Assembly: GCF_013122565.1 (NCBI RefSeq)
Contig: NZ_CP053258.1
Source: Escherichia coli
GTDB lineage: Bacteria > Pseudomonadota > Gammaproteobacteria > Enterobacterales > Enterobacteriaceae
Direction: 5' to 3' (one strand)
DNA length: 64,000 bases
Positions 3,394 to 49,822 of the stretch are shown here, piece by piece. The translations under genes were made by a program, and so were the position numbers. Under the pieces are notes generated by a model. That model saw only the letters and a list, made by a program, of their open reading frames with translations. It was not told the DNA's origin and did no database searches. Numbering within the stretch: position 1 is the stretch's first letter; the number at the start of each line of letters is the position of its first letter.

Positions 3394-4779
3394 ATGCTGA
3401 CATTCATTGAACTCCTTATTGGGGTTGTGGTTATTGTGGGTGTAGCTCGCTACATCATTAAAGGGTATTCCGCCACTGGTGTGTTATTTGTCGGTGGCCT
3501 GTTATTGCTGATTATCAGTGCCATTATGGGGCACAAAGTGTTACCGTCCAGCCAGGCTTCAACAGGCTACAGCGCCACGGATATCGTTGAATACGTTAAA
3601 ATATTGCTAATGAGCCGCGGCGGCGACCTCGGCATGATGATTATGATGCTGTGTGGCTTTGCCGCTTACATGACCCATATCGGCGCGAATGATATGGTGG
3701 TCAAGCTGGCGTCAAAACCATTGCAGTATATTAACTCCCCTTACCTGCTGATGATTGCCGCCTATTTTGTTGCCTGTCTGATGTCTTTGGCCGTCTCTTC
3801 CGCAACCGGTCTGGGCGTTTTGCTGATGGCTACTCTGTTTCCGGTGATGGTAAACGTTGGTATCAGTCGTGGCGCAGCAGCTGCCATTTGTGCCTCCCCG
3901 GCGGCGATTATTCTCGCACCGACTTCAGGGGATGTGGTGCTGGCGGCACAGGCTTCCGAAATGTCGCTGATTGACTTCGCCTTCAAAACGACGCTGCCTA
4001 TCTCAATTGCTGCAATTATCGGCATGGCGATCGCCCACTTCTTCTGGCAACGTTATCTGGATAAAAAAGAGCACATTTCTCATGAAATGTTAGATGTCAG
4101 TGAAATCACCACCACTGCTCCTGCGTTTTATGCCATTTTGCCGTTCACGCCGATCATCGGTGTACTGATTTTTGACGGTAAATGGGGTCCGCAATTACAC
4201 ATCATCACTATTCTGGTGATTTGTATGCTGATTGCCTCCATTCTGGAGTTTCTCCGCAGCTTTAATACCCAGAAAGTTTTCTCTGGTCTGGAAGTGGCTT
4301 ATCGCGGGATGGCAGATGCGTTTGCTAACGTGGTGATGCTGCTGGTTGCCGCTGGGGTATTCGCTCAGGGGCTTAGCACCATCGGCTTTATTCAAAGTCT
4401 GATTTCTATCGCTACCTCGTTTGGTTCGGCGAGTATCATCCTGATGCTGGTATTGGTGATTCTGACAATGCTGGCGGCAGTCACGACCGGTTCAGGCAAT
4501 GCGCCGTTTTATGCGTTTGTTGAGATGATCCCGAAACTGGCGCACTCTTCCGGCATTAACCCGGCGTATTTGACTATCCCGATGCTGCAGGCGTCAAACC
4601 TGGGCCGTACCCTTTCGCCCGTTTCTGGCGTAGTCGTTGCGGTTGCCGGGATGGCGAAAATCTCACCATTTGAAGTCGTAAAACGCACCTCGGTGCCGGT
4701 GCTTGTTGGGCTGGTGATTGTTATCGTTGCTACAGAGCTGATGGTGCCAGGAACGGCAGCAGCGGTCACAGGCAAGTAA
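3394..4779 (+). CDS. dcuC: anaerobic C4-dicarboxylate transporter DcuC (461 aa)
   Basis: Track ORF 461 aa, polytopic membrane protein; ATG at 3394 preceded by a ggagacagg SD-like sequence. Confidence 0.95.
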   Translation: MLTFIELLIGVVVIVGVARYIIKGYSATGVLFVGGLLLLIISAIMGHKVLPSSQASTGYSATDIVEYVKILLMSRGGDLGMMIMMLCGFAAYMTHIGANDMVVKLASKPLQYINSPYLLMIAAYFVACLMSLAVSSATGLGVLLMATLFPVMVNVGISRGAAAAICASPAAIILAPTSGDVVLAAQASEMSLIDFAFKTTLPISIAAIIGMAIAHFFWQRYLDKKEHISHEMLDVSEITTTAPAFYAILPFTPIIGVLIFDGKWGPQLHIITILVICMLIASILEFLRSFNTQKVFSGLEVAYRGMADAFANVVMLLVAAGVFAQGLSTIGFIQSLISIATSFGSASIILMLVLVILTMLAAVTTGSGNAPFYAFVEMIPKLAHSSGINPAYLTIPMLQASNLGRTLSPVSGVVVAVAGMAKISPFEVVKRTSVPVLVGLVIVIVATELMVPGTAAAVTGK

Positions 4780-4784
4780 ATAGT

Positions 4785-4816
4785 AATGCCGGAGGCAAGT
4801 TTCCTCCGGCTTTATC
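4785..4816. terminator. hairpin terminator in the 40-bp gap between convergent dcuC and dpiA
   Basis: gccggagg-caagttt-cctccggc followed by tttat. Confidence 0.65.
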
Positions 4817-4819
4817 ATG

Positions 4820-5500
4820 TCACCCACTGTGGTATATGCGTTGCGGTCTGCCAACTTTGCCGTGAACAATTTCAGCAATAATCAGATGGCGGCTGGCGCA
4901 ATATTCAAGATAACGCCTGGCAGTGGTGCGGCTGATGGTCAATGCCTGCGCCACCGTTTCTGCCGTATGTTGCACACCAGGCTCTTTGAACAATTTTCGC
5001 ACCGCGTTTAGCGTCAAGGGGTCAATGCCGGTCGGCAGTTCGTCTTTGGGTTCACCACGAGCATAGGCATTAAACATCTCATCAATTTGCTTCTGGCTGG
5101 CGCTATCAATACTTTCCAGCATATGTTTACGCTGGCGGAAACGGGTTAGCGTTTGCCCCAGCCGTTCATAGGCAATTGGCTTGATGAGATAATCAAATAC
5201 ACCACAACGTACGGCTTCAGACACCGTTTCCATATCGCTGGCTGCAGTGGTAAACACCACGTCGCCGGGATAATGCGCCTGCACCAGTTCATGCAGTAAA
5301 TTAATCCCTCTACCGTCAGGAAGATAGTTATCGAGCAAGATTAGCCCCGGCTTAAAACGCTCGATCATCATTCGGGCCTGCGCCAGGTTTCCCGCCAGTA
5401 ATATCTGACTGAATCCGGGAATGTGACGAATATATTCCGCATGCATCTCTGCCAGCGGCGTTTCGTCCTCAACGATCAATAGGGTTAATGGAGCTGTCAT
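4820..5500 (-). CDS. dpiA: two-component response regulator DpiA/CitB (226 aa)
   Basis: Track ORF 226 aa with receiver domain (LIVEDE...D) and C-terminal HTH; first 10 codons overlap the 3' end of dpiB. Confidence 0.93.
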   Translation of the reverse strand: MTAPLTLLIVEDETPLAEMHAEYIRHIPGFSQILLAGNLAQARMMIERFKPGLILLDNYLPDGRGINLLHELVQAHYPGDVVFTTAASDMETVSEAVRCGVFDYLIKPIAYERLGQTLTRFRQRKHMLESIDSASQKQIDEMFNAYARGEPKDELPTGIDPLTLNAVRKLFKEPGVQHTAETVAQALTISRTTARRYLEYCASRHLIIAEIVHGKVGRPQRIYHSG

Positions 5501-25812: not shown

Positions 25813-26901
25813 ATGCCTCACAATCCTATCCGCGTGGTCGTCGGCCCGGCTAACTACTTTTCACATCCAGGAAGTTTCAATCACCTGCACGATTTTTTCA
25901 CTGATGAACAGCTTTCTCGCGCGGTGTGGATCTACGGCGAACGCGCCATTGCTGCGGCGCAAACCAAACTTCCGCCAGCGTTTGAACTGCCAGGGGCAAA
26001 GCATATTTTGTTTCGCGGTCATTGCAGCGAAAGCGATGTACAACAACTGGCGGCTGAGTCCGGTGACGATCGCAGCGTGGTGATTGGCATCGGCGGCGGC
26101 GCACTGCTCGACACCGCGAAAGCCCTCGCCCGCCGTCTCGGTCTGCCGTTTGTTGCCGTTCCGACGATCGCCGCCACCTGCGCCGCCTGGACACCGCTCT
26201 CCGTCTGGTATAACGATGCCGGACAGGCGCTGCATTATGAGATTTTCGACGACGCCAATTTTATGGTGCTGGTGGAGCCAGAGATTATCCTCAATGCGCC
26301 GCAACGATATCTGCTGGCGGGGATCGGTGACACGCTGGCGAAATGGTATGAAGCGGTGGTGCTGGCCCCGCAACCAGAAACGTTGCCGCTAACCGTGCGG
26401 CTAGGGATCAATAATGCGCTGGCTATTCGCGACGTCTTGTTAAACAGTAGCGAACAGGCGCTTGCCGATCAGCAAAATCACCAGTTAACGCAATCATTTT
26501 GCGATGTGGTGGATGCCATTATTGCTGGTGGTGGGATGGTTGGTGGTCTGGGCGATCGTTTTACGCGTGTGGCGGCAGCTCATGCCGTGCATAACGGTCT
26601 GACCGTGCTGCCGCAAACCGAGAAGTTTCTCCACGGCACCAAAGTCGCCTACGGAATTCTGGTGCAAAGCGCCTTGCTGGGTCAGGATGATGTGCTGGCG
26701 CAATTAACTGGAGCGTATCAGCGTTTTCATCTGCCGACTACGCTGGCGGAGCTGGAAGTGGATATCAATAATCAGGCGGAGATCGACAAAGTGATTGCCC
26801 ACACCTTGCGCCCGGTGGAATCCATTCATTACCTGCCGGTCACGCTGACACCGGATACGTTGCGTGCAGCGTTCGAAAAAGTGGAATCGTTTAAAGCCTG
26901 A
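25813..26901 (+). CDS. ybdH: iron-containing alcohol dehydrogenase family hydroxycarboxylate dehydrogenase (362 aa)
   Basis: Track ORF 362 aa, glycerol-dehydrogenase-like fold (GGGALLDTAKA motif). Confidence 0.9.
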   Translation: MPHNPIRVVVGPANYFSHPGSFNHLHDFFTDEQLSRAVWIYGERAIAAAQTKLPPAFELPGAKHILFRGHCSESDVQQLAAESGDDRSVVIGIGGGALLDTAKALARRLGLPFVAVPTIAATCAAWTPLSVWYNDAGQALHYEIFDDANFMVLVEPEIILNAPQRYLLAGIGDTLAKWYEAVVLAPQPETLPLTVRLGINNALAIRDVLLNSSEQALADQQNHQLTQSFCDVVDAIIAGGGMVGGLGDRFTRVAAAHAVHNGLTVLPQTEKFLHGTKVAYGILVQSALLGQDDVLAQLTGAYQRFHLPTTLAELEVDINNQAEIDKVIAHTLRPVESIHYLPVTLTPDTLRAAFEKVESFKA

Positions 26902-26910
26902 CGTACACAT

Positions 26911-27108
26911 TTAGCAGCAGCGCGCGCCGCCTTTTCCACCGTAGCGCGCGTCCTGCCGCTCACGGAAAAACTCCTCGTAGGTCATCGGCGTCTGATCGGG
27001 ATGGTTAACCCGCATATGTTCGACATAGTTGTCGTAATCAGGCATACCAATCATCAGTTTCGCCGCCTGACCTAAATATTTTCCGGCTTTTGCCAGTGAA
27101 TCAAACAT
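26911..27108 (-). CDS. ybdD: small DUF466 protein encoded downstream of cstA (65 aa)
   Basis: Track ORF 65 aa ([48 protein letters not shown]...). Confidence 0.85.
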
Positions 27109-27141
27109 TAATACCTCCGGTAATCAGGTTGCCAGGAGAGT

Positions 27142-27176
27142 GCCGGATGCGGCGTGAACGCCTTATCCGGCCTACA
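27142..27176. repeat. REP (repetitive extragenic palindrome) between ybdD and cstA
   Basis: gccggatgcggcgtgaacgccttatccggcctaca, canonical REP-like sequence; the same 35-mer recurs at 49068-49102. Confidence 0.6.
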
Positions 27177-27184
27177 AATGCTAT

Positions 27185-27295
27185 CAACGTGCTCGGTCAG
27201 TCCCCTCGCCCCACCGGGGAGAGGGTTAGGGTGAGGGGAAACCCTCGGCGCCATGCCAACATTCGCCAACATTCCCCCTCACTCTGACTTTAGTG
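27185..27295. repeat. GC-rich imperfect palindromic element (GGGAGAGGG / CCCTCACCC cores) downstream of cstA
   Basis: cccctcgccccaccggggagagggttagggtgaggggaaaccctc...; shares about 20-nt cores with the element in the fepB leader (coordinates approximate to about 15 bp). Confidence 0.4.
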
Positions 27296-29395
27296 CGCGC
27301 CTTTTGCCTGCGCCACGATCTCCTCGACATTTTCCGGCATCGGCTCATACGGCGTTTCTTTCGCCGTTGGCTTCGGATCTTTCAATGCCGCAAGTGCCGT
27401 CTTAATCGAGAACAGTGCCAGAACCACCACGACCACCATAAAGAAGATGGTTAACCCGGCATCCAGACGGTTGTTGAACACCAGTTGCGCCAGCTGTGAC
27501 TCAGTATACTGCGACGGAATATTGCCGCTGTCGATCATTGCCTGGAACTTGTTAGCAATCGCCAGGAAGCCGACTTTCGCATCCGGGCTAAACGCTTTCT
27601 GCCAGCCTGCGGTCAGGGTACAAATCAGCAGCCAGGCCGTTGGTACCAGCGCCACCCAGGCGTAACGTTGACGTTTCATTTTGAACAGCACTACGGCACA
27701 GAGCATCAGCGCCATCCCTGCCAGCATCTGGTTGGCAATACCAAACAGCGGCCACAGAGTGTTAATACCGCCCAGCGGATCGACCACGCCCTGATGGAGG
27801 AAGTAGCCCCACGCCAGTACGCACAGCGCCGTTGCCAGCAGGTTAGCAGGCAGTGAATCGGTCCGTTTCAGACCCGGAGACACCACGCCCAGCAGATCCT
27901 GCAACATAAAGCGCGCAGCACGCGTACCTGCATCCACCGCCGTCAGAATAAACAGTGCTTCAAACAAAATGGCGAAGTGATACCAGAACGCCACATCCAT
28001 CATGCCGCCCAGCGCGCCGTGCAGAATGTAGGCCATCCCCACCGCCAGCGTCGGCGCACCGCCCGCACGGGAAATGATCGACTGTTCACCCACTTCGCTG
28101 GCAATCTGGTTTAGCGTATCCGGGGTAATCGCAAAGCCCCAGCTACTCACCACCTGCGCGGCAGAAGCGACCACATCCGCCGTCCCTGCCGGAGCCAGCA
28201 CCGCCATCGGGCTGTTCATGGCGAAGTACACACCCGGATCGATGATACAGGCGGAAACCAGCGCCATAATCGCTACGAAGGATTCCATCAACATCCCGCC
28301 GTAGCCGATAAAGCACGCCTGCCCTTCGTTCGCCAGCATCTTCGGCGTGGTGCCGGAAGAGATCAGCGCATGGAAGCCAGACACCGCGCCACAGGCGATG
28401 GTGATAAACAGGAACGGGAACAGGTTACCGGTCCATACCGGGCCAGTGCCATCGACAAATTTGGTCAGCGCAGGCATGGTCAGCGTCGGGCGCATAATCA
28501 AAATGCCTACCGCCAGACCGACGATAGTCCCGATTTTCAGGAAGGTAGAAAGGTAGTCACGCGGAGCCAGCAGCAACCACACCGGCAGCACCGCCGCCAC
28601 AAAACCGTAACCCACCAGCATCCAGGTCAGCTGCACGCCGGTAAAGTCAAAGTACGGTGCCCAGGTCGGGCTTTCTGCCACCCAGCCGCCAGAGATAATG
28701 GCGAAAATCAGGAATACCAGACCGATGACCGACACTTCACCAATACGCCCCGGACGCAGATAGCGCAGGTAGATCCCCATAAACAGCGCCAGCGGAATGG
28801 TGAACGCAACGGTATACGTTCCCCACGGGCTATGAGTCAGGGCTTTCACCACGATCATCGCCAGTACTGCAAGGATAATGACCATGATCATAAAGCAGGC
28901 CACCAGCGCTATCACCCCGGCGGTTGGCCCCATCTCTTCTTTGACCAGCTCACCCAGCGATCGACCGTCACGGCGCGTAGAAACAAACAGCACCATGAAA
29001 TCCTGCACCGCACCGGCGAGAACCACCCCGGCGAGCAGCCAGATCATCCCTGGCAGGTAACCCATTTGCGCCGCCAGTACCGGCCCAACCAACGGACCTG
29101 CTCCGGCAATGGCCGCAAAATGGTGACCGAACAGCACTTTCTTGTCCGTCGGCACATAGTCCAGCCCGTCGTTATGCCGCACCGCTGGCGTCATACGCGT
29201 CGGGTCAACCGCCAGCACATTTTTGGCGATATACAGACCATAAAAACGGTAAGCGATCAGATAGATACAGACCGACGCCACCACAATCCACAGTGCGTTG
29301 ATCTGTTCCCCACGATTTAAAGCAATGTATCCCAGAGCAAATGCTCCCATTACAGAGAGCACTGTCCAGACGAGGTATTTCCCTGATTTGTTCAT
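27290..29395 (-). CDS. cstA: carbon starvation protein A, CstA-family peptide/pyruvate transporter (701 aa)
   Basis: Track ORF 701 aa, large polytopic membrane protein. Confidence 0.93.
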   Translation of the reverse strand: MNKSGKYLVWTVLSVMGAFALGYIALNRGEQINALWIVVASVCIYLIAYRFYGLYIAKNVLAVDPTRMTPAVRHNDGLDYVPTDKKVLFGHHFAAIAGAGPLVGPVLAAQMGYLPGMIWLLAGVVLAGAVQDFMVLFVSTRRDGRSLGELVKEEMGPTAGVIALVACFMIMVIILAVLAMIVVKALTHSPWGTYTVAFTIPLALFMGIYLRYLRPGRIGEVSVIGLVFLIFAIISGGWVAESPTWAPYFDFTGVQLTWMLVGYGFVAAVLPVWLLLAPRDYLSTFLKIGTIVGLAVGILIMRPTLTMPALTKFVDGTGPVWTGNLFPFLFITIACGAVSGFHALISSGTTPKMLANEGQACFIGYGGMLMESFVAIMALVSACIIDPGVYFAMNSPMAVLAPAGTADVVASAAQVVSSWGFAITPDTLNQIASEVGEQSIISRAGGAPTLAVGMAYILHGALGGMMDVAFWYHFAILFEALFILTAVDAGTRAARFMLQDLLGVVSPGLKRTDSLPANLLATALCVLAWGYFLHQGVVDPLGGINTLWPLFGIANQMLAGMALMLCAVVLFKMKRQRYAWVALVPTAWLLICTLTAGWQKAFSPDAKVGFLAIANKFQAMIDSGNIPSQYTESQLAQLVFNNRLDAGLTIFFMVVVVVLALFSIKTALAALKDPKPTAKETPYEPMPENVEEIVAQAKGAH

Positions 29396-29575
29396 AGTTG
29401 TTATCCGTGTGCGTGTCCATAGAGATGTTACATTTTGTTTCTATAACATCTTTGTACGATTTAACAACACGGCAACCATGTAAATCGGAGTTGAAACCAA
29501 TATTTAACTTAACAATGTTAACTCGATCACTCCGTTAACCGAGTTTTCCTGCAATCTCATTTAATTCTGTCGGGC

Positions 29576-33228: not shown

Positions 33229-34404
33229 TTAATGCAATCCAAAAACGTTCAACATGGTAGAAAGTTTGACGCCTGTTTCGCGCCACTCACCCAACGGTGA
33301 CGACGCAGGCACAATCCCCGCTCCGGCAAACAGACGCACCTGATTTTCCCGCAGCTTCGCGCAGCGGATGGTCACCACCCATTCGCCGTTACCTTCGCTG
33401 TCACACCAACCCACGATGCCGCCAAACAGTTCGCGGTCGAACGGCTCCAGTTCAGCAATAACCTGGGTCGCGGCCTGATGCGGGAAACCGCTCAGCGCGG
33501 GGGTCGGATGCAGCAGACAGGCCAGAGTCAGTGCGTTTTCTTGCGAATTCGCTTTACCTTCAAAGGGAGTTGCGAGATGCCACAGCGTCGGCGTGGTAAT
33601 CAGCTGTGGACAGGAGGGAACGTGTAACTCACTACTGCGTTCGCGCAGTACCTCTTTCATCGCCTGAGTCACCAGTTCATGTTCATGGCGATCTTTTTCT
33701 GACGCCAGCAGACGATTACCCGCTTCGCGATCGAGCACTTCATCCGGCTGACGACGCGCGGAACCGGCTAACGGAATGGAGCTAAAACGCTCGCCGTCTT
33801 TACGTAGCAGCAGTTCCGGGCTGGCCCCCAGCAGGACGCCACCATCTGCCAACGGCACATGGAAGTTGTAACTAACCGGGTTTTGCGCAATCAACCGTTC
33901 CAGCAATACGCCACTATCAATGGCGGCGTCAGTGGTGATATCAATCAACCGTGACAACACCACTTTGTCGACCTGCGGCGTGGCGGTAAGTGCGGCAGCG
34001 CGAGCAACCATCTGTTCAAACGTGGTTTGTTCCGGAATTGCCTGGCGTTCCACCACGTTCAGCGACTGGCTGCGGGTGAAACGGCGTGCGGAAGCTTGTT
34101 TTTCCTGACGGGAGAACGACTGCCAGGATTCAGGAATATACAGCGACGAAGGCTGACATGGATCGAAGGGAATCGCCCCGACCATCACCGGATTTTTGAT
34201 GCCCTGCGCTTTGGCGTCGGCAAACAGCGCGGCGAGTTTTTGCTGGAAGGGACTGTCGGGCGAATCCCCATTCACAGCCGGTTCATCGAAGCGGGCGAAA
34301 CATCCTGACGTCGTAAAACTGCGGTACGGCGACATAAAGAAAAAGCGATTGGGCGCAAGTGTTGCCATGGTCTGCTGTACTTCCTCAGCCAGTGACGTAT
34401 CCAT
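33229..34404 (-). CDS. entC: isochorismate synthase (391 aa)
   Basis: Internal ATG ([19 protein letters not shown]) of track ORF 33229..34416; the track start codon is GTG. Confidence 0.93.
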
Positions 34405-34419
34405 ATCATCCTCCACAAA

Positions 34420-34460: not shown

Positions 34461-34589
34461 TCGCTAACCTAAAAGCAAACGCGCACTATGTCAACTCTTG
34501 AGGTAACGCAATCTGCAACTCGGGGTTGCATCTGGTTGTGGTTACAATGAAAATGAGAAGCATTATTGATGGATTCGCATAAGCGCAAT

Positions 34590-34730
34590 GTGATGGCCTG
34601 CGCCGTTCTGCCCCCTCTCCCTTCCAGGGAGAGGGCTGGGGTGAGGGTTAATGCTCGCACCAGTGCTGGCTGTTCCCCTCACCCTCTCCCCAAAGGGGCG
34701 AGGGTACGGATTGTGCGCTTTGTCGAATTT
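34590..34730. repeat. GC-rich imperfect palindromic element in the fepB leader / entC-fepB intergenic region
   Basis: ccccctctccc-ttcc-agggagagggctggggtgaggg ... cccctcaccctctcccc-aaa-ggggcgaggg: nested inverted repeats (coordinates approximate to about 15 bp). Confidence 0.4.
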
Positions 34731-34772: not shown

Positions 34773-35729
34773 GTGAGACTCGCCCCGCTCTACCGCAATG
34801 CCCTTCTATTAACAGGACTTTTGCTTTCAGGAATAGCCGTAGTTCAGGCCGCCGACTGGCCGCGTCAGATTACTGACAGCCGGGGCACTCATACCCTGGA
34901 AAGCCAGCCGCAGCGTATTGTTTCCACCAGCGTCACCCTGACTGGCTCACTGCTGGCGATTGATGCTCCTGTGATCGCCAGCGGCGCGACCACGCCGAAT
35001 AACCGCGTCGCGGATGACCAGGGTTTTTTACGCCAGTGGAGCAAGGTGGCGAAAGAACGCAAACTGCAACGGCTCTATATCGGCGAACCGAGCGCCGAAG
35101 CCGTTGCCGCGCAAATGCCGGATCTGATTTTAATTAGCGCAACCGGTGGTGATTCGGCGCTGGCGCTGTATGATCAGCTTTCCACCATCGCCCCGACATT
35201 AATCATCAATTACGACGACAAAAGCTGGCAGTCGCTGTTAACGCAGCTTGGCGAAATTACCGGGCATGAGAAACAAGCGGCAGAGCGGATTGCACAGTTT
35301 GATAAGCAACTGGCGGCGGCGAAAGAGCAAATCAAATTACCGCCGCAGCCGGTCACTGCCATTGTCTATACCGCCGCTGCACACAGTGCCAATCTCTGGA
35401 CGCCGGAATCAGCACAAGGGCAGATGCTGGAACAACTCGGCTTTACGTTGGCGAAATTGCCCGCAGGGTTAAACGCCAGCCAAAGCCAGGGCAAACGCCA
35501 TGACATCATTCAGCTTGGTGGAGAAAATCTGGCTGCAGGGTTAAATGGCGAGTCACTATTCCTGTTCGCCGGTGATCAGAAAGATGCCGATGCTATTTAT
35601 GCCAATCCACTGCTCGCGCACCTGCCCGCAGTACAAAACAAGCAGGTTTATGCGCTGGGAACCGAGACGTTCCGTCTGGATTACTACAGCGCCATGCAAG
35701 TGCTGGAACGACTTAAGGCGCTGTTTTAA
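34773..35729 (+). CDS. fepB: ferric enterobactin periplasmic binding protein (318 aa)
   Basis: Track ORF 318 aa with signal peptide; start codon appears to be GTG; long structured leader upstream. Confidence 0.93.
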
Positions 35730-46630: not shown

Positions 46631-46787
46631 TAGCGTAATGGCGCGCCGTGGGAAGCGCGGACATTAATTAACCAACTGCACTGCGTGTCTTTCAGGATCA
46701 AAGGCTTTCGCGGTAGCGGGCTGCGTCATGCTGGTGACGCCCCTGCCCGACAGTTGCAATTCGTGGCAAAAATGCAGGAATAAAACA

Positions 46788-49028
46788 ATGAACAAGAAGA
46801 TTCATTCCCTGGCCTTGTTGGTCAATCTGGGGATTTATGGGGTAGCACAGGCACAAGAGCCAACCGATACTCCTGTTTCACATGACGATACCATTGTCGT
46901 TACCGCCGCCGAGCAGAACTTGCAGGCACCTGGCGTTTCGACCATCACCGCAGATGAAATCCGCAAAAACCCGGTTGCCCGCGATGTGTCGGAGATCATC
47001 CGTACCATGCCAGGCGTTAACCTGACCGGTAACTCCACCAGTGGTCAGCGTGGTAATAACCGCCAGATTGATATTCGCGGCATGGGTCCGGAAAACACGC
47101 TGATTTTGATTGACGGCAAGCCAGTAAGCAGCCGTAACTCGGTGCGTCAGGGCTGGCGTGGTGAGCGCGATACCCGTGGTGATACCTCCTGGGTGCCACC
47201 TGAAATGATTGAACGTATTGAAGTTCTGCGTGGTCCGGCAGCTGCGCGTTACGGCAACGGCGCGGCGGGCGGCGTGGTTAACATCATTACCAAAAAAGGC
47301 AGCGGTGAGTGGCACGGCTCCTGGGATGCTTATTTCAATGCGCCAGAACATAAAGAGGAAGGTGCCACCAAACGCACCAACTTCAGCCTGACCGGTCCGC
47401 TGGGCGACGAATTCAGCTTCCGCTTGTATGGCAACCTCGACAAAACCCAGGCTGACGCGTGGGATATCAACCAGGGCCATCAGTCCGCGCGTGCCGGAAC
47501 GTATGCCACGACGTTACCAGCCGGGCGCGAAGGGGTGATCAACAAAGATATTAATGGTGTCGTTCGTTGGGATTTCGCACCTCTGCAGTCACTCGAACTG
47601 GAAGCGGGCTACAGCCGCCAGGGTAACCTGTATGCGGGCGATACCCAGAACACCAACTCTGACGCTTACACTCGCTCGAAATATGGCGATGAAACCAACC
47701 GCCTGTATCGCCAGAACTACTCGCTGACCTGGAACGGTGGCTGGGATAACGGCGTGACCACCAGCAACTGGGTGCAGTACGAACACACCCGTAACTCGCG
47801 CATCCCGGAAGGTCTGGCGGGCGGCACAGAAGGGAAATTTAACGAAAAAGCGACACAGGATTTCGTCGATATCGATCTTGATGACGTGATGCTGCATAGC
47901 GAAGTTAACCTGCCGATTGATTTCCTCGTTAACCAGACGCTGACGCTGGGTACGGAGTGGAATCAGCAACGGATGAAGGACTTAAGTTCCAACACCCAGG
48001 CACTGACCGGAACGAATACCGGCGGCGCTATTGATGGTGTGAGTGCCACCGACCGTAGCCCGTATTCAAAAGCAGAAATTTTCTCGCTGTTTGCCGAAAA
48101 CAACATGGAGCTGACTGACAGCACCATCGTAACGCCGGGGCTGCGTTTCGATCATCACAGTATTGTCGGCAATAACTGGAGCCCGGCGCTGAACATATCG
48201 CAAGGTTTAGGCGATGACTTCACGCTGAAAATGGGCATTGCCCGCGCCTATAAAGCGCCGAGCCTGTACCAGACTAACCCGAACTACATTCTCTACAGTA
48301 AAGGTCAGGGCTGCTATGCCAGCGCGGGCGGCTGCTATCTGCAAGGTAACGATGACCTGAAAGCAGAAACCAGCATCAACAAAGAGATTGGTCTGGAGTT
48401 CAAACGCGACGGCTGGCTGGCGGGCGTCACCTGGTTCCGTAACGATTATCGCAATAAGATTGAAGCGGGCTATGTGGCTGTAGGGCAAAACGCAGTCGGC
48501 ACCGATCTCTATCAGTGGGATAACGTGCCGAAAGCGGTGGTTGAAGGTCTGGAAGGATCTTTAAACGTACCGGTTAGCGAAACGGTGATGTGGACCAATA
48601 ACATCACTTATATGCTGAAGAGTGAAAACAAAACCACGGGCGACCGTTTGTCGATCATCCCGGAGTATACGTTGAACTCAACGCTGAGCTGGCAGGCACG
48701 GGAAGATTTGTCGATGCAAACGACCTTCACCTGGTACGGCAAGCAGCAGCCGAAGAAGTACAACTATAAAGGTCAGCCAGCGGTTGGCCCGGAAACCAAA
48801 GAAATTAGTCCTTACAGCATTGTTGGCCTGAGCGCGACCTGGGATGTGACGAAGAATGTCAGTCTGACCGGCGGCGTGGACAACCTGTTCGACAAACGTT
48901 TGTGGCGTGCGGGTAATGCCCAGACCACGGGCGATCTGGCAGGGGCCAACTATATCGCCGGTGCCGGTGCGTATACCTATAACGAGCCGGGACGTACGTG
49001 GTACATGAGCGTTAATACTCACTTCTGA
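46788..49028 (+). CDS. fepA: TonB-dependent ferric enterobactin outer-membrane receptor (746 aa)
   Basis: Internal Met (MNKKIHSLALLVNLGIYGVAQA signal peptide) of track ORF 46728..49028; TonB box DTIVVTA and C-terminal aromatic residue. Confidence 0.95.
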   Translation: MNKKIHSLALLVNLGIYGVAQAQEPTDTPVSHDDTIVVTAAEQNLQAPGVSTITADEIRKNPVARDVSEIIRTMPGVNLTGNSTSGQRGNNRQIDIRGMGPENTLILIDGKPVSSRNSVRQGWRGERDTRGDTSWVPPEMIERIEVLRGPAAARYGNGAAGGVVNIITKKGSGEWHGSWDAYFNAPEHKEEGATKRTNFSLTGPLGDEFSFRLYGNLDKTQADAWDINQGHQSARAGTYATTLPAGREGVINKDINGVVRWDFAPLQSLELEAGYSRQGNLYAGDTQNTNSDAYTRSKYGDETNRLYRQNYSLTWNGGWDNGVTTSNWVQYEHTRNSRIPEGLAGGTEGKFNEKATQDFVDIDLDDVMLHSEVNLPIDFLVNQTLTLGTEWNQQRMKDLSSNTQALTGTNTGGAIDGVSATDRSPYSKAEIFSLFAENNMELTDSTIVTPGLRFDHHSIVGNNWSPALNISQGLGDDFTLKMGIARAYKAPSLYQTNPNYILYSKGQGCYASAGGCYLQGNDDLKAETSINKEIGLEFKRDGWLAGVTWFRNDYRNKIEAGYVAVGQNAVGTDLYQWDNVPKAVVEGLEGSLNVPVSETVMWTNNITYMLKSENKTTGDRLSIIPEYTLNSTLSWQAREDLSMQTTFTWYGKQQPKKYNYKGQPAVGPETKEISPYSIVGLSATWDVTKNVSLTGGVDNLFDKRLWRAGNAQTTGDLAGANYIAGAGAYTYNEPGRTWYMSVNTHF

Positions 49029-49067: not shown

Positions 49068-49164
49068 GCCGGATGCGGCGTGAACGCCTTATCCGGCCTA
49101 CAAAATCTTGCTAATTCAATATATTGCAGGACTACGTAGGCCTGATAAGCGTAGCGCATCAGGC
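49068..49164. repeat. BIME: two REP units in inverted orientation between fepA and entD
   Basis: gccggatgcggcgtgaacgccttatccggcctaca (49068-49102) and gtaggcctgataagcgtagcgcatcaggc (49136-49164). Confidence 0.6.
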
Positions 49165-49201
49165 AGTTTTGCGTTTGTCATCAGTCTCTAATACGGTCGA
49201 C

Positions 49202-49822
49202 ATGAAAACTACGCATACCTCCCTCCCCTTTGCCGGACATACGCTGCATTTTGTTGAGTTTGATCCGGCGAGTTTTCACGAGCAGGATTTACTCTGGCTG
49301 CCGCACTACGCGCAACTGCAACACGCTGGACGGAAGCGCAAAGCCGAACATTTAGCCGGACGGATCGCTGCAGTTTATGCGCTGCGGGAATATGGCTATA
49401 AATATGTGCCCGCAATCGGCGAGCTACGCCAACCTGTGTGGCCTGCGGGGGTATACGGCAGCATTAGTCACTGTGGGACTACGGCATTAGCCGTGGTATC
49501 TCGTCAACCGATTGGCATTGATATTGAAGAAATTTTTTCTGCGCAAACCGCAAGAGAATTGACAGACAACATTATTACGCCAGCGGAACACAAGCGACTC
49601 GCAGACTGCGGTTTAGCCTTTTCTCTGGCGCTGACACTGGCATTTTCCGCCAAAGAAAGCGCATTTAAGGCATCGAAGAGACAAACTGAAGCAGGTTTTA
49701 TGGACTATCAGATAATTAACTGGAATAAACAGCAGGTCATCATTCATCGTGAGAATAAGATGTTTGCTGTGCACTGGCAGATAAAAGAAAAAATAGTCAT
49801 AACTCTGTGCCAACACGATTAA
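49202..49822 (+). CDS. entD: 4'-phosphopantetheinyl transferase EntD (206 aa)
   Basis: Internal ATG at 49202 (MKTTHTSLPFAGHTLHF) of track ORF 49124..49822; stop TAA at 49820-49822. Confidence 0.9.
   Translation: MKTTHTSLPFAGHTLHFVEFDPASFHEQDLLWLPHYAQLQHAGRKRKAEHLAGRIAAVYALREYGYKYVPAIGELRQPVWPAGVYGSISHCGTTALAVVSRQPIGIDIEEIFSAQTARELTDNIITPAEHKRLADCGLAFSLALTLAFSAKESAFKASKRQTEAGFMDYQIINWNKQQVIIHRENKMFAVHWQIKEKIVITLCQHD

Follow-up and report, generated by a model that had tools for sequence, protein, structure and literature searches.

The window analyzed here is a 64,000-nt stretch of Escherichia coli DNA, the minus strand of which carries cstA (27290-29395) followed by ybdD (26911-27108), with a spacer of 181 nt between them (27109-27289). 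The 701-aa product of cstA matches Pfam PF02554 over the whole profile (positions 1-560 of 560, E 6.4e-257, 854 bits against a cut-off of 27), which places it in the CstA family (PF02554; TC 2.A.114), and RefSeq labels it "pyruvate/proton symporter CstA". By analogy with its K-12 orthologue, for which H+/pyruvate symport has been described (Hwang 2018; Gasperotti 2020), it would be an H+/pyruvate symporter. The 65-aa product of ybdD falls within the 60-70 aa or so that characterize the YbdD/YjiX (DUF466) family and matches PF04328 (Sel_put/DUF466) at profile positions 2-61 of 61 (E 1.6e-30, 105 bits against a cut-off of 25). An earlier note on this DNA had called the same two genes on the same strand, with a gap of about 180 bp containing a REP and a GC-rich palindrome; the ORF coordinates and Pfam matches agree with the gene calls, and both elements are present in the spacer. 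Convergent with ybdD lies hcxA (ybdH; 25813-26901, plus strand), an oxidoreductase gene by its NCBIfam PRK10586 assignment. The genes run entH-cstA-ybdD, followed by the convergent hcxA and by ybdL, as in K-12 b0597-b0600, and the genes, their order and their neighbors are those of K-12 cstA (b0598) and ybdD (b4512), the constitutive pyruvate uptake system of Hwang 2018. Among 5,426 complete E. coli genomes, RefSeq annotates both genes in almost every one. The locus is the E. coli cstA-ybdD pyruvate-uptake locus and has already been described; the DUF466-CstA pairing, the BoxC copy at this site and an AlphaFold-Multimer complex of the two proteins are likewise already in print.

Upstream of cstA, the entH-cstA intergenic region (29396-29575, minus strand) holds the cstA promoter and leader according to the ORF map. 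It contains a CRP-like site at 29516-29531 with two mismatches to the consensus, a match that taken alone is not above chance, and two GGA motifs lie directly 5' of the cstA ATG. CsrA sites at the cstA leader were reportedly described by Dubey in 2003. Expression of cstA is activated by cAMP-CRP and repressed by Fis (Gasperotti 2020).

A role for YbdD in pyruvate uptake is known from K-12 (Hwang 2018). Deletion of either cstA or ybdD confers resistance to 3-fluoropyruvate and lowers pyruvate uptake to 13% (ΔcstA) or 20% (ΔybdD) of the wild-type level; the double mutant behaves like the single mutants, without synergy. The ybdD deletion that the earlier note had proposed as a test of CstA-dependent uptake had thus already been made, and it lowers pyruvate uptake. 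Complementation with cstA only, as in Gasperotti 2020, does not settle whether YbdD is required, because only btsT, cstA and yhjX were deleted in that background and chromosomal ybdD and yjiX should remain. A PDB sequence search returned no solved structure for CstA or YbdD. The AlphaFold2 model of YbdD (pLDDT 67.5) has helices at residues 2-20, 25-35 and 44-56 and a flexible C-terminal tail ending in RCC, and a published AlphaFold-Multimer model of the CstA-YbdD complex scores above 0.75 (ipTM+pTM). We picture YbdD as a small accessory protein of three helices that is not itself in the membrane, is needed for CstA-dependent uptake and probably acts by binding CstA. YbdD is extremely conserved, and its sequence is 72-80% identical to homologues from Pseudomonas, Sulfurospirillum and Bartonella. 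The protein ends in GGARCC, with a Cys-Cys carboxyl terminus; H31, H36, C64 and C65 are invariant, the two cysteines across 18 diverse homologues, and the C-terminal RCC/KCU motif of the YbdD/YjiX family was noted by Haft 2022. In Campylobacter, the C-terminal Cys-Cys of the family is Cys-Sec.

The association of the two genes extends well beyond E. coli. In a sample biased to Gammaproteobacteria, cstA lies directly upstream of the DUF466 gene on the same strand at 72 of 78 testable loci, as it does in the window, bearing out the recurrence that the earlier note had pointed out. The spacer measures 2-26 nt in Pseudomonas, 1 nt in Plasticicumulans and about 45-63 nt in most enterics. The two genes would appear to form an ancient same-strand pair, near-abutting in Pseudomonas, whose spacer has probably grown to 181 nt here. 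The paralogous btsT-yjiX pair, also cited in that note, is present in K-12, where BtsT is 62% identical to CstA and YjiX is 73% identical to YbdD. As with cstA-ybdD, the gene for a CstA-family pyruvate symporter precedes, on the same strand, one for a DUF466 protein with a terminal RCC, and a hairpin lies between them. However, the btsT-yjiX spacer is just 49 nt long (181 nt at cstA-ybdD), a U-rich tail (UUUGUUCUU) makes its hairpin resemble an intrinsic terminator, and yjiX is followed by the COG0523 GTPase gene yjiA, whereas ybdD is followed by the convergent hcxA. A yjiA-like gene lies 3' of the DUF466 gene at 35 of 80 loci, and in Gilliamella it stays with the DUF466 gene even where cstA is missing.

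The earlier note had described the mRNA between the two genes as highly structured, and folding supports this: the spacer RNA has a predicted free energy of -85.6 kcal/mol (z = -2.7 relative to dinucleotide shuffles). The fold contains three main helices, all given here on the minus strand. The first, hairpin 1 (AGAGUGAGGGGGAAU...GUUUCCCCUCACCCU; 27228-27285), is a 52-nt hairpin that begins 5 nt past the cstA stop codon; its core (27231-27282) folded alone gives -29.8 kcal/mol. Hairpin 1 was found in every Escherichia allele examined, including E. albertii and a divergent genome labelled E. coli, and its loop contains a 10-bp tandem repeat (aatgttggcg/aatgttggca, 27254-27273) that is present in zero, one or two copies depending on the strain. 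The second helix belongs to a dispersed repeat of the BoxC/PIT/"HPG1" family (27199-27240), BoxC being the same element as PIT (Holder 2015). Its core hairpin is CCCUCUCCCC-GGU-GGGGCGAGGG at 27203-27225, and it has the C-rich/G-rich palindrome with the G-rich 21-mer GGGAGAGGGTTAGGGTGAGGG that marks the family; this 21-mer is exact at 27217-27237 on the plus strand and had no matches in shuffled sequences. The copy between cstA and ybdD was listed by Kaplan 2016. It shares the exact HPG1 21-mer with the BoxC/PIT/TMECO/HPG1 repeats (Holder 2015; Kaplan 2016), and nothing sets it apart from them as a repeat; at this site its 5' flank also supplies the 3' arm of hairpin 1. BoxC and hairpin 1 together form a closed composite structure (27195-27289, -52 kcal/mol). 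A related BoxC pair lies elsewhere in the window, between entC and fepB.

The third helix is a REP element (GTAGGCCGGATAAGGCGTTCACGCCGCATCCGGC; 27142-27175), the stem of which (27142-27171) has a predicted free energy of -19.5 kcal/mol. It is an imperfect palindrome of about 35 nt with the GCCGGATG...CCGGCCTAC consensus and many intergenic copies, as is typical of REP/BIME elements; the identical 34-mer recurs at 49068-49101, between fepA and entD, and was absent from shuffles. E. coli genomes have a median of 35-39 places that match it. An Rfam search of the spacer returned no known cis-regulatory RNA, yielding only a sub-threshold match to the REP-derived naRNA4 (39 bits against a cut-off of 59.5) and a chance match to Antizyme_FSE. 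The sequences 3' of the composite hairpin and of the REP are not U-rich, and a terminator scan of 27109-27289 found no site resembling an intrinsic terminator. A promoter scan of the spacer and of the last ~600 nt of cstA was likewise negative for sigma-70-like sites. A 54-aa ORF at 27108-27272, whose stop overlaps the ybdD start codon (TAATG), was rejected as a gene: it is a translation of the two repeats, BoxC and REP, other alleles have it in altered form or not at all, and in K-12 it lacks the overlapping stop.

Within E. coli, the spacer varies between strains. The spacer of K-12 is 182 nt long and has hairpin 1, BoxC and REP in common with the window, and the ybdD-plus-spacer segment of the window is about 95% identical to it; the window allele is a rare one, with 16 records at 99% identity or above over that segment. 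Besides those of 181 and 182 nt, alleles of 172, 153, 143, 127 and 112 nt occur. REP is absent from the 143-, 153- and 112-nt alleles and BoxC from the 112- and 127-nt alleles, so that all four combinations of presence and absence are found within the species. The 112-nt allele, with neither repeat, is carried by 1,187 of 5,426 genomes (22%), indicating that REP and BoxC are dispensable. Every allele, the repeat-free one included, nevertheless retains at least two strong hairpins. The Shine-Dalgarno sequence of ybdD, GGAGG at 27114-27118 (minus strand, 5 nt before the ATG), is invariant in all seven aligned alleles. Substitutions around it in the window allele are predicted to pair the Shine-Dalgarno sequence and the AUG, for which the predicted probabilities of being unpaired are 0.15 and 0.05, respectively, compared with 0.64 and 0.71 in K-12. 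We considered sequestration of this site as a conserved switch and rejected the idea, as the pairing is predicted only in the allele of the window, and neither in K-12 nor in most of the others.

A hairpin at this position is also found outside Escherichia. Each of 53 spacers of 30-200 nt contains a hairpin of -15 kcal/mol or lower, with a median MFE z-score of -4.0, and the hairpin sequences are unrelated between genera. What is conserved between the paired genes is a hairpin, whatever its sequence, and not REP or BoxC as such. Only 6 of the 53 spacers have at least four U among the 8 nt 3' of the stem; in Enterobacterales and Aeromonas a stable hairpin, usually without a U-tract, would in every case lie between both genes. 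Hairpins after genes are common in bacteria, and their presence alone is no proof of a role within an operon.

The distance from the cstA stop codon to the start of the hairpin is 0-13 nt in many other genera. Ribosome stalling by a REP within 15 nt of a stop codon is a mechanism reportedly shown for REPs by Liang, Rudd and Deutscher in 2015. With its start 5 nt past the stop and its stable core, hairpin 1 might similarly stall terminating ribosomes and lower CstA synthesis. We regard this as very improbable, since that mechanism concerns REPs and not hairpin 1, and several genera have the hairpin at more than 15 nt from the stop.

RNA 3' ends mapped in K-12 fall at the bases of these structures. 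Aligned to the window, the Term-seq 3' end at K-12 632098 (LB, OD600 2.0; Adams 2021) corresponds to 27192 on the minus strand. This position is 84 nt short of the ybdD ATG and 7 nt past the base pair that closes the composite hairpin. A second 3' terminus, at K-12 632150-632159 in Supplementary Data 2 of the TRS paper (peak 632154, signal 0.97), corresponds to 27131-27140 on the same strand, 2-11 nt 3' of the REP stem with its peak at 6 nt. The 3' end immediately after BoxC contrasts with work from the Maher laboratory that, as summarized in Holder 2015, found that PIT/BoxC elements act neither as promoters nor as terminators and have no effect in vivo. The earlier note had proposed that the spacer structure could uncouple or stabilize expression of the small protein. 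The 3' ends after the BoxC composite and after REP fit this proposal, but these particular repeats cannot be essential to it, as 22% of genomes lack both.

That same dispensability, together with the inactivity summarized for PIT/BoxC and the scattering of REP and BoxC copies over many intergenic regions, would be expected if the two repeats were neutral selfish insertions with no effect on cstA-ybdD and the K-12 3' ends were incidental decay intermediates. We think this somewhat unlikely. The strong hairpins persist even in the repeat-free allele, a hairpin of unrelated sequence occupies the same place in all 53 spacers from other genera, and the 3' ends are sharp and lie exactly at hairpin bases in two independent data sets.

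Other data concern the start of ybdD transcripts. Adams 2021 places 632098 in its "5' UTR" list, for which the stated rule is a mapped TSS 21-200 nt upstream, implying a TSS between 631898 and 632077. RegulonDB, in the entries quoted by Kaplan 2016, gives cstA and ybdD as separate single-gene units (1/1), and in a Salmonella time course ybdD clusters with ybdL, ybdH, ybdM and met genes. These observations are consistent with ybdD being an independent unit, with a promoter within the final ~100 nt of cstA or the initial ~80 nt of the spacer, the hairpins forming the cstA terminator region. We consider this possible but doubtful: the promoter scan located no candidate there, a spacer promoter could not fit into the 1-60 nt that separate the genes in most other taxa, and the two genes are induced together when Salmonella is inside macrophages. 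Antisense transcription from hcxA could alternatively account for the Salmonella clustering. Neither gene appears in the SMRT-Cappable-seq supplements.

Antisense transcription has also to be weighed for the palindromes themselves, which fold on either strand. The stop codons of ybdD and hcxA are only 9 bp apart, so their transcripts must overlap; the pair is among the listed convergent excludons, and an antisense-strand Rho-termination region lies at K-12 631994, just past the spacer. The palindromes might therefore mainly serve the opposite strand, ending or stabilizing a long hcxA 3' UTR antisense to ybdD within a ybdD-hcxA excludon. We find this quite improbable, given that the mapped sense-strand 3' ends point to an action of the hairpins on the cstA strand and that most other genera have the hairpin without an adjacent hcxA (for example, with a same-strand yjiA-like gene next).

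The reading that we favor, with a probability of roughly 0.6, is that in this pyruvate-uptake locus the spacer hairpins define or protect the 3' ends of cstA mRNA, and that ybdD is expressed by read-through or from a nearby start site. Most transcripts from the CRP-dependent cstA promoter would acquire their 3' ends at the spacer hairpins, whether through inefficient termination or because 3' exonucleases trim them back as far as the stems, and ends bounded in this way would protect cstA mRNA. The output of ybdD would differ from that of cstA and would probably be lower, coming from read-through, from a start near the cstA 3' end or from both, with translation from its own strong GGAGG site. 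REP and BoxC would be interchangeable, the presence of some hairpin being what matters. An independent ybdD start and this favored reading are not mutually exclusive.

A precedent is the REP-stabilized operon mRNA of malE-malF, reported by Newbury et al. in 1987. As in such operons, cstA-ybdD has an intercistronic REP with an RNA 3' end a few nt past the stem, and by analogy the upstream message would be expected to exceed the downstream one. In contrast to malE-malF, the REP here is dispensable in many strains and shares the spacer with BoxC and a resident hairpin. We infer that the hairpins cause the K-12 3' ends and set the CstA:YbdD ratio. Several points run counter to this. A 1:1 complex of transporter and accessory protein offers no obvious gain from lower ybdD expression; absence of both repeats from 22% of genomes has no known consequence, so the repeat part could be neutral; and the summary in Holder 2015 and the RegulonDB entries quoted in Kaplan 2016 speak for inactive repeats and separate units, respectively.

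A more far-reaching version, which we hold to be unlikely, links a selected hairpin to a regulatory YbdD. The hairpin retained, irrespective of its sequence, between cstA-family and DUF466 genes in Enterobacterales, Aeromonas and beyond may be an attenuator or RNA-stability element that keeps YbdD sub-stoichiometric to CstA, with REP and BoxC tolerated as substitutes, and YbdD/YjiX may regulate the transporter by sensing metal or redox state rather than serve as a passive subunit. The invariant H31 and H36, the C-terminal Cys-Cys and the functional tie to the COG0523 GTPase YjiA may point in this direction.

Little would change in what is known of the locus itself, as earlier work had already described both genes, the part they play together in pyruvate uptake, and the two repeat families. 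What the natural E. coli spacer alleles provide, carrying both repeats, one or neither, is a ready allelic series for the effects of REP and BoxC on a gene pair that flanks them.

The cstA ORF (701 aa; 27290-29395, minus strand) matches the full Pfam CstA profile (PF02554, E 6.4e-257), and the ybdD ORF (65 aa; 26911-27108, minus strand) matches Sel_put/DUF466 (PF04328, E 1.6e-30). Coordinates and Pfam matches agree with the same-strand pair described in the earlier note. Using a 2.8-kb query and a threshold of at least 80% of its length, we found the region in 5,419 of 5,426 complete E. coli genomes, where the genes are annotated as 'pyruvate/proton symporter CstA' and 'YbdD/YjiX family protein' and are flanked by entH and hcxA. 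Gene order in K-12 is identical to that of the window. The top identity of the window region to E. coli genomes is 98.8% with this query, and only 16 records reach at least 99% with a 579-nt query, indicating that the window lineage is uncommon within E. coli. The finding of the earlier note is real and correctly described, yet it was already known and annotated.

To sample other species, we took one genome per species and the best 80 DUF466 loci by similarity, which is why the sample is mostly Gammaproteobacteria. Among the 78 loci with sufficient upstream sequence, 72 have a cstA homolog directly upstream on the same strand, consistent with the claim that the pairing recurs in bacteria; of the other six, five belong to Gilliamella and one to Moellerella. 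The comparison with the K-12 paralogs also holds, BtsT and YjiX being 62% and 73% identical to the window proteins, whereas the btsT-yjiX spacer is 49 nt long, with a GC hairpin and then UUUGUUCUU. In L057 (Edwardsiella ictaluri) and L077 (Pseudomonas sp. Kh13), the cstA frame read to the next stop passes the DUF466 start by 55 and 29 nt, respectively; the genes could genuinely overlap, or the cause could be a frameshift or an artefact at the end of the alignment.

The cstA-ybdD spacer (27109-27289, minus strand) is 181 nt long (182 nt in K-12) and contains, 5' to 3' on the coding strand, hairpin 1, BoxC, REP and the ybdD Shine-Dalgarno sequence (SD). Hairpin 1 (27285-27228, minus strand) starts 5 nt past the cstA stop codon, and its core alone folds to -29.8 kcal/mol. 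Folding places the BoxC core hairpin at 27225-27203 (minus strand), and the exact BoxC 21-mer, GGGAGAGGGTTAGGGTGAGGG, which has no matches in shuffles, lies at 27217-27237 (plus strand). An outer helix closes hairpin 1 and BoxC into a composite (27195-27289, minus strand; -52 kcal/mol). The 34-mer REP (27175-27142, minus strand) has a stem of -19.5 kcal/mol, and the SD, GGAGG, occupies 27118-27114 (minus strand). The earlier description of about 180 bp with a REP and a GC-rich palindrome, giving highly structured mRNA, is thus borne out, the entire spacer folding to -85.6 kcal/mol (z -2.7). A sequence scan of the spacer revealed no hairpin-plus-U-tract terminator, and an Rfam search of it gave only a sub-threshold match, to the REP-derived naRNA4. 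The palindrome has been described before: Kaplan et al. 2016 catalogued exactly this copy, between cstA and ybdD, as 'HPG1', and Holder et al. 2015 identified motifs of this kind as BoxC/PIT elements, which their account of earlier work describes as inactive in vivo, whether as promoters, as terminators or otherwise.

A 34-mer identical to the spacer REP lies at 49068-49101, where fepA (46728-49028) and entD (49124-49822), which share a strand, are 95 nt apart. It is the window's second instance of a REP that separates a large gene for a membrane protein from a small gene downstream. The hairpin 1 loop (27254-27273) contains a 10-bp tandem repeat (aatgttggcg / aatgttggca) present in two, one or zero copies depending on the E. 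coli strain, a small slippage-type polymorphism. A 54-aa ORF running through BoxC and REP (27108-27272, minus strand), whose stop overlaps the ybdD start (TAATG), is almost certainly no gene, as it is unconserved in K-12 and shorter alleles.

We surveyed E. coli spacers with the 579-nt query, which runs from ybdD across the spacer into the 3' end of cstA. The spacers fall into discrete length classes, and all combinations of BoxC and REP occur among the aligned alleles: both are present in the 181-, 182- and 172-nt alleles, BoxC without REP in the 143- and 153-nt alleles, REP without BoxC in the 127-nt allele, and neither in the 112-nt allele. The latter, found in 1,187 of 5,426 complete genomes, retains two hairpins, hairpin 1 and GCCCUCUUAAUUCAGGAGGGC; the latter has AUUUGUAUUA after it and is similar to the hairpin of the Citrobacter spacer. 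E. albertii and one divergent genome labeled E. coli have hairpin 1 and REP without BoxC. Hairpin 1 and the SD are kept in all aligned E. coli alleles, and the middle part is exchanged. Judged from these alignments, REP and BoxC are dispensable, and it is possible that they are neutral insertions. Predicted SD and AUG accessibility differs between alleles, being low in the rare window allele (P(unpaired) 0.15 and 0.05), in which folding predicts that both base-pair with spacer sequence upstream of them (regions involved, 27105-27139 and 27182-27190), and high in K-12 (0.64 and 0.71). Since accessibility varies by allele, SD sequestration as a conserved switch is ruled out.

Spacer length ranges from 1 nt in Plasticicumulans and 2-26 nt in Pseudomonas through about 42-63 nt in most Enterobacteriaceae, Aeromonas and Orbaceae and 112-182 nt in Escherichia to as much as 835 nt in some Providencia. 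We observed a simple hairpin with a dG of -15 kcal/mol or better in every one of the 53 spacers of 30-200 nt; whole-spacer MFE z scores in this length range have a median of -4.0 and are below -2 in 92%. The stems are non-homologous between genera: Citrobacter-type stems are GCCCUCUCC...GGAGAGGGC, REP-like stems occur in Lelliottia and Enterobacter, and inverted BoxC pairs occur in Enterobacter, Pseudocitrobacter and Cedecea, among other types. The conserved feature between the two genes is a hairpin of any sequence. At least four U among the 8 nt past the stem were found in only 6 of the 53 spacers, indicating that most of these hairpins are not canonical terminators. In most of the 53 spacers the hairpin starts 0-13 nt past the stop codon, and ribosome stalling at a hairpin in this position is a possible but improbable alternative role.

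Published K-12 data place RNA 3' ends at these structures. The Term-seq map of Adams et al. 2021 has a dominant 3' end at 632098 (+) in LB at OD600 2.0. Their '3' end region' spans -50 to +10, as we verified on the cstA 629914 entry, and this convention assigns the end to the G of GACUGACCGAG (window ~27192), which is 7 nt past the pair that closes the hairpin-1/BoxC composite and precedes the ybdD ATG by 84 nt. The TRS re-analysis gives a 3' terminus at 632150-632159 (peak 632154, signal 0.97), 6 nt past the REP stem (window ~27136). The 5'-UTR list of Adams et al. 2021 still includes 632098, and entry to that list requires a mapped TSS 21-200 nt upstream of the 3' end; by this rule a TSS is required at 631898-632077. 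An independent ybdD promoter is thus possible, and a sequence scan found no sigma-70-like promoter in the spacer. RegulonDB, in the portion relayed by Kaplan 2016, gives cstA and ybdD as single-gene units. Both genes are induced in Salmonella in macrophages; in another Salmonella time course, ybdD clusters with ybdL, ybdH and ybdM.

On the opposite strand, Adams et al. 2021 report a Rho-termination region at K-12 631994, and ExcludonFinder classifies ybdD-hcxA as a convergent overlap. The stops of these convergent genes are 9 bp apart (26901-26911), so their transcripts must overlap. Together, the Rho region at the cstA 3' end and the excludon imply that hcxA has a 3' UTR of ~400 nt running antisense to both ybdD and the spacer, and an antisense or excludon role involving the hcxA strand is possible, though not likely.

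Two further Term-seq 3' ends in K-12, 629914 and 629954, lie 20 and 60 nt inside the cstA coding sequence (window ~29375 and ~29335), suggesting premature termination or processing at the cstA start. They are near the leader, a known CsrA binding region. Elsewhere in the window, a BoxC-type palindrome pair (34609-34710) lies between the divergent entC (33229-34416, minus strand) and fepB (34773-35729, plus strand). The listed flank of a very abundant end in Adams 2021 (K-12 624680, about 100,000 Term-seq reads) closely matches 34559-34619 and enters the first palindrome, which gives a further BoxC element with an RNA 3' end.

With respect to function, the Tn-seq screen of Hwang et al. 2018 for resistance to 3-fluoropyruvate identified both cstA and ybdD. 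Pyruvate uptake was 13% of wild type in the cstA deletion and 20% in the ybdD deletion, with no synergy in the double mutant; they concluded that CstA and YbdD make up a single constitutive system for pyruvate uptake, and proposed a two-hybrid experiment. Gasperotti et al. 2020 showed CstA to be a specific H+-driven pyruvate transporter controlled by CRP and Fis; their deletions were limited to btsT, cstA and yhjX, so ybdD and yjiX were presumably left on the host chromosome. According to Haft 2022, both YbdD and YjiX end in Arg-Cys-Cys-COOH and each adjoins CstA or its paralog; the Campylobacter/Helicobacter homologs have Cys-Sec at the end. The pairing, the btsT/yjiX analogy and one experiment proposed in the earlier note are therefore already in the literature.

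A PDB search returned no structure for either CstA or YbdD. YbdD is highly conserved: homologs from Pseudomonas, Sulfurospirillum, Bartonella and Neisseriales relatives are 72-80% identical to the E. coli protein, with invariant residues including H31, H36, C64 and C65. Modeled alone, YbdD has helices at 2-20, 25-35 and 44-56 with moderate confidence and a flexible C-terminal Cys-Cys tail, and it lacks any hydrophobic stretch long enough to span a membrane; these features fit a cytoplasmic partner folding on CstA. The AlphaFold-Multimer CstA-YbdD complex predicted by Fesenko et al. 2024 passes the ipTM+pTM cut-off of 0.75. In 35 of the 80 loci, including Pseudomonas, Aeromonas, Edwardsiella and Sulfurospirillum, the DUF466 gene is followed, in the same orientation, by a gene for a YjiA-like COG0523 metal-binding GTPase (4216-5265 in locus L053; yjiA at 410-1366 in L087, the K-12 btsT locus), and this GTPase gene still adjoins the DUF466 gene in the five Gilliamella loci without upstream cstA. 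The window ybdD, in contrast, has no such neighbor. The YjiA-like neighbor, His31, His36 and the C-terminal Cys-Cys hint at a possible metal- or redox-related role for YbdD.

Our modest additions are the within-species presence/absence series of spacer repeats, the sequence-independent hairpin between the genes across genera, and the match in position between hairpins and RNA 3' ends mapped in published work. The evidence best supports an ancient pairing of transporter and accessory protein, with a hairpin conserved between their genes; in the window lineage, ordinary REP and BoxC repeats supplement this hairpin. Most cstA transcripts would have their 3' ends at the hairpins, through termination or exonuclease trimming, and ybdD may be expressed from read-through or from a TSS close to where cstA ends. 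If the predicted SD/AUG pairing is real, ybdD would be translated less well from the read-through transcripts of this strain.
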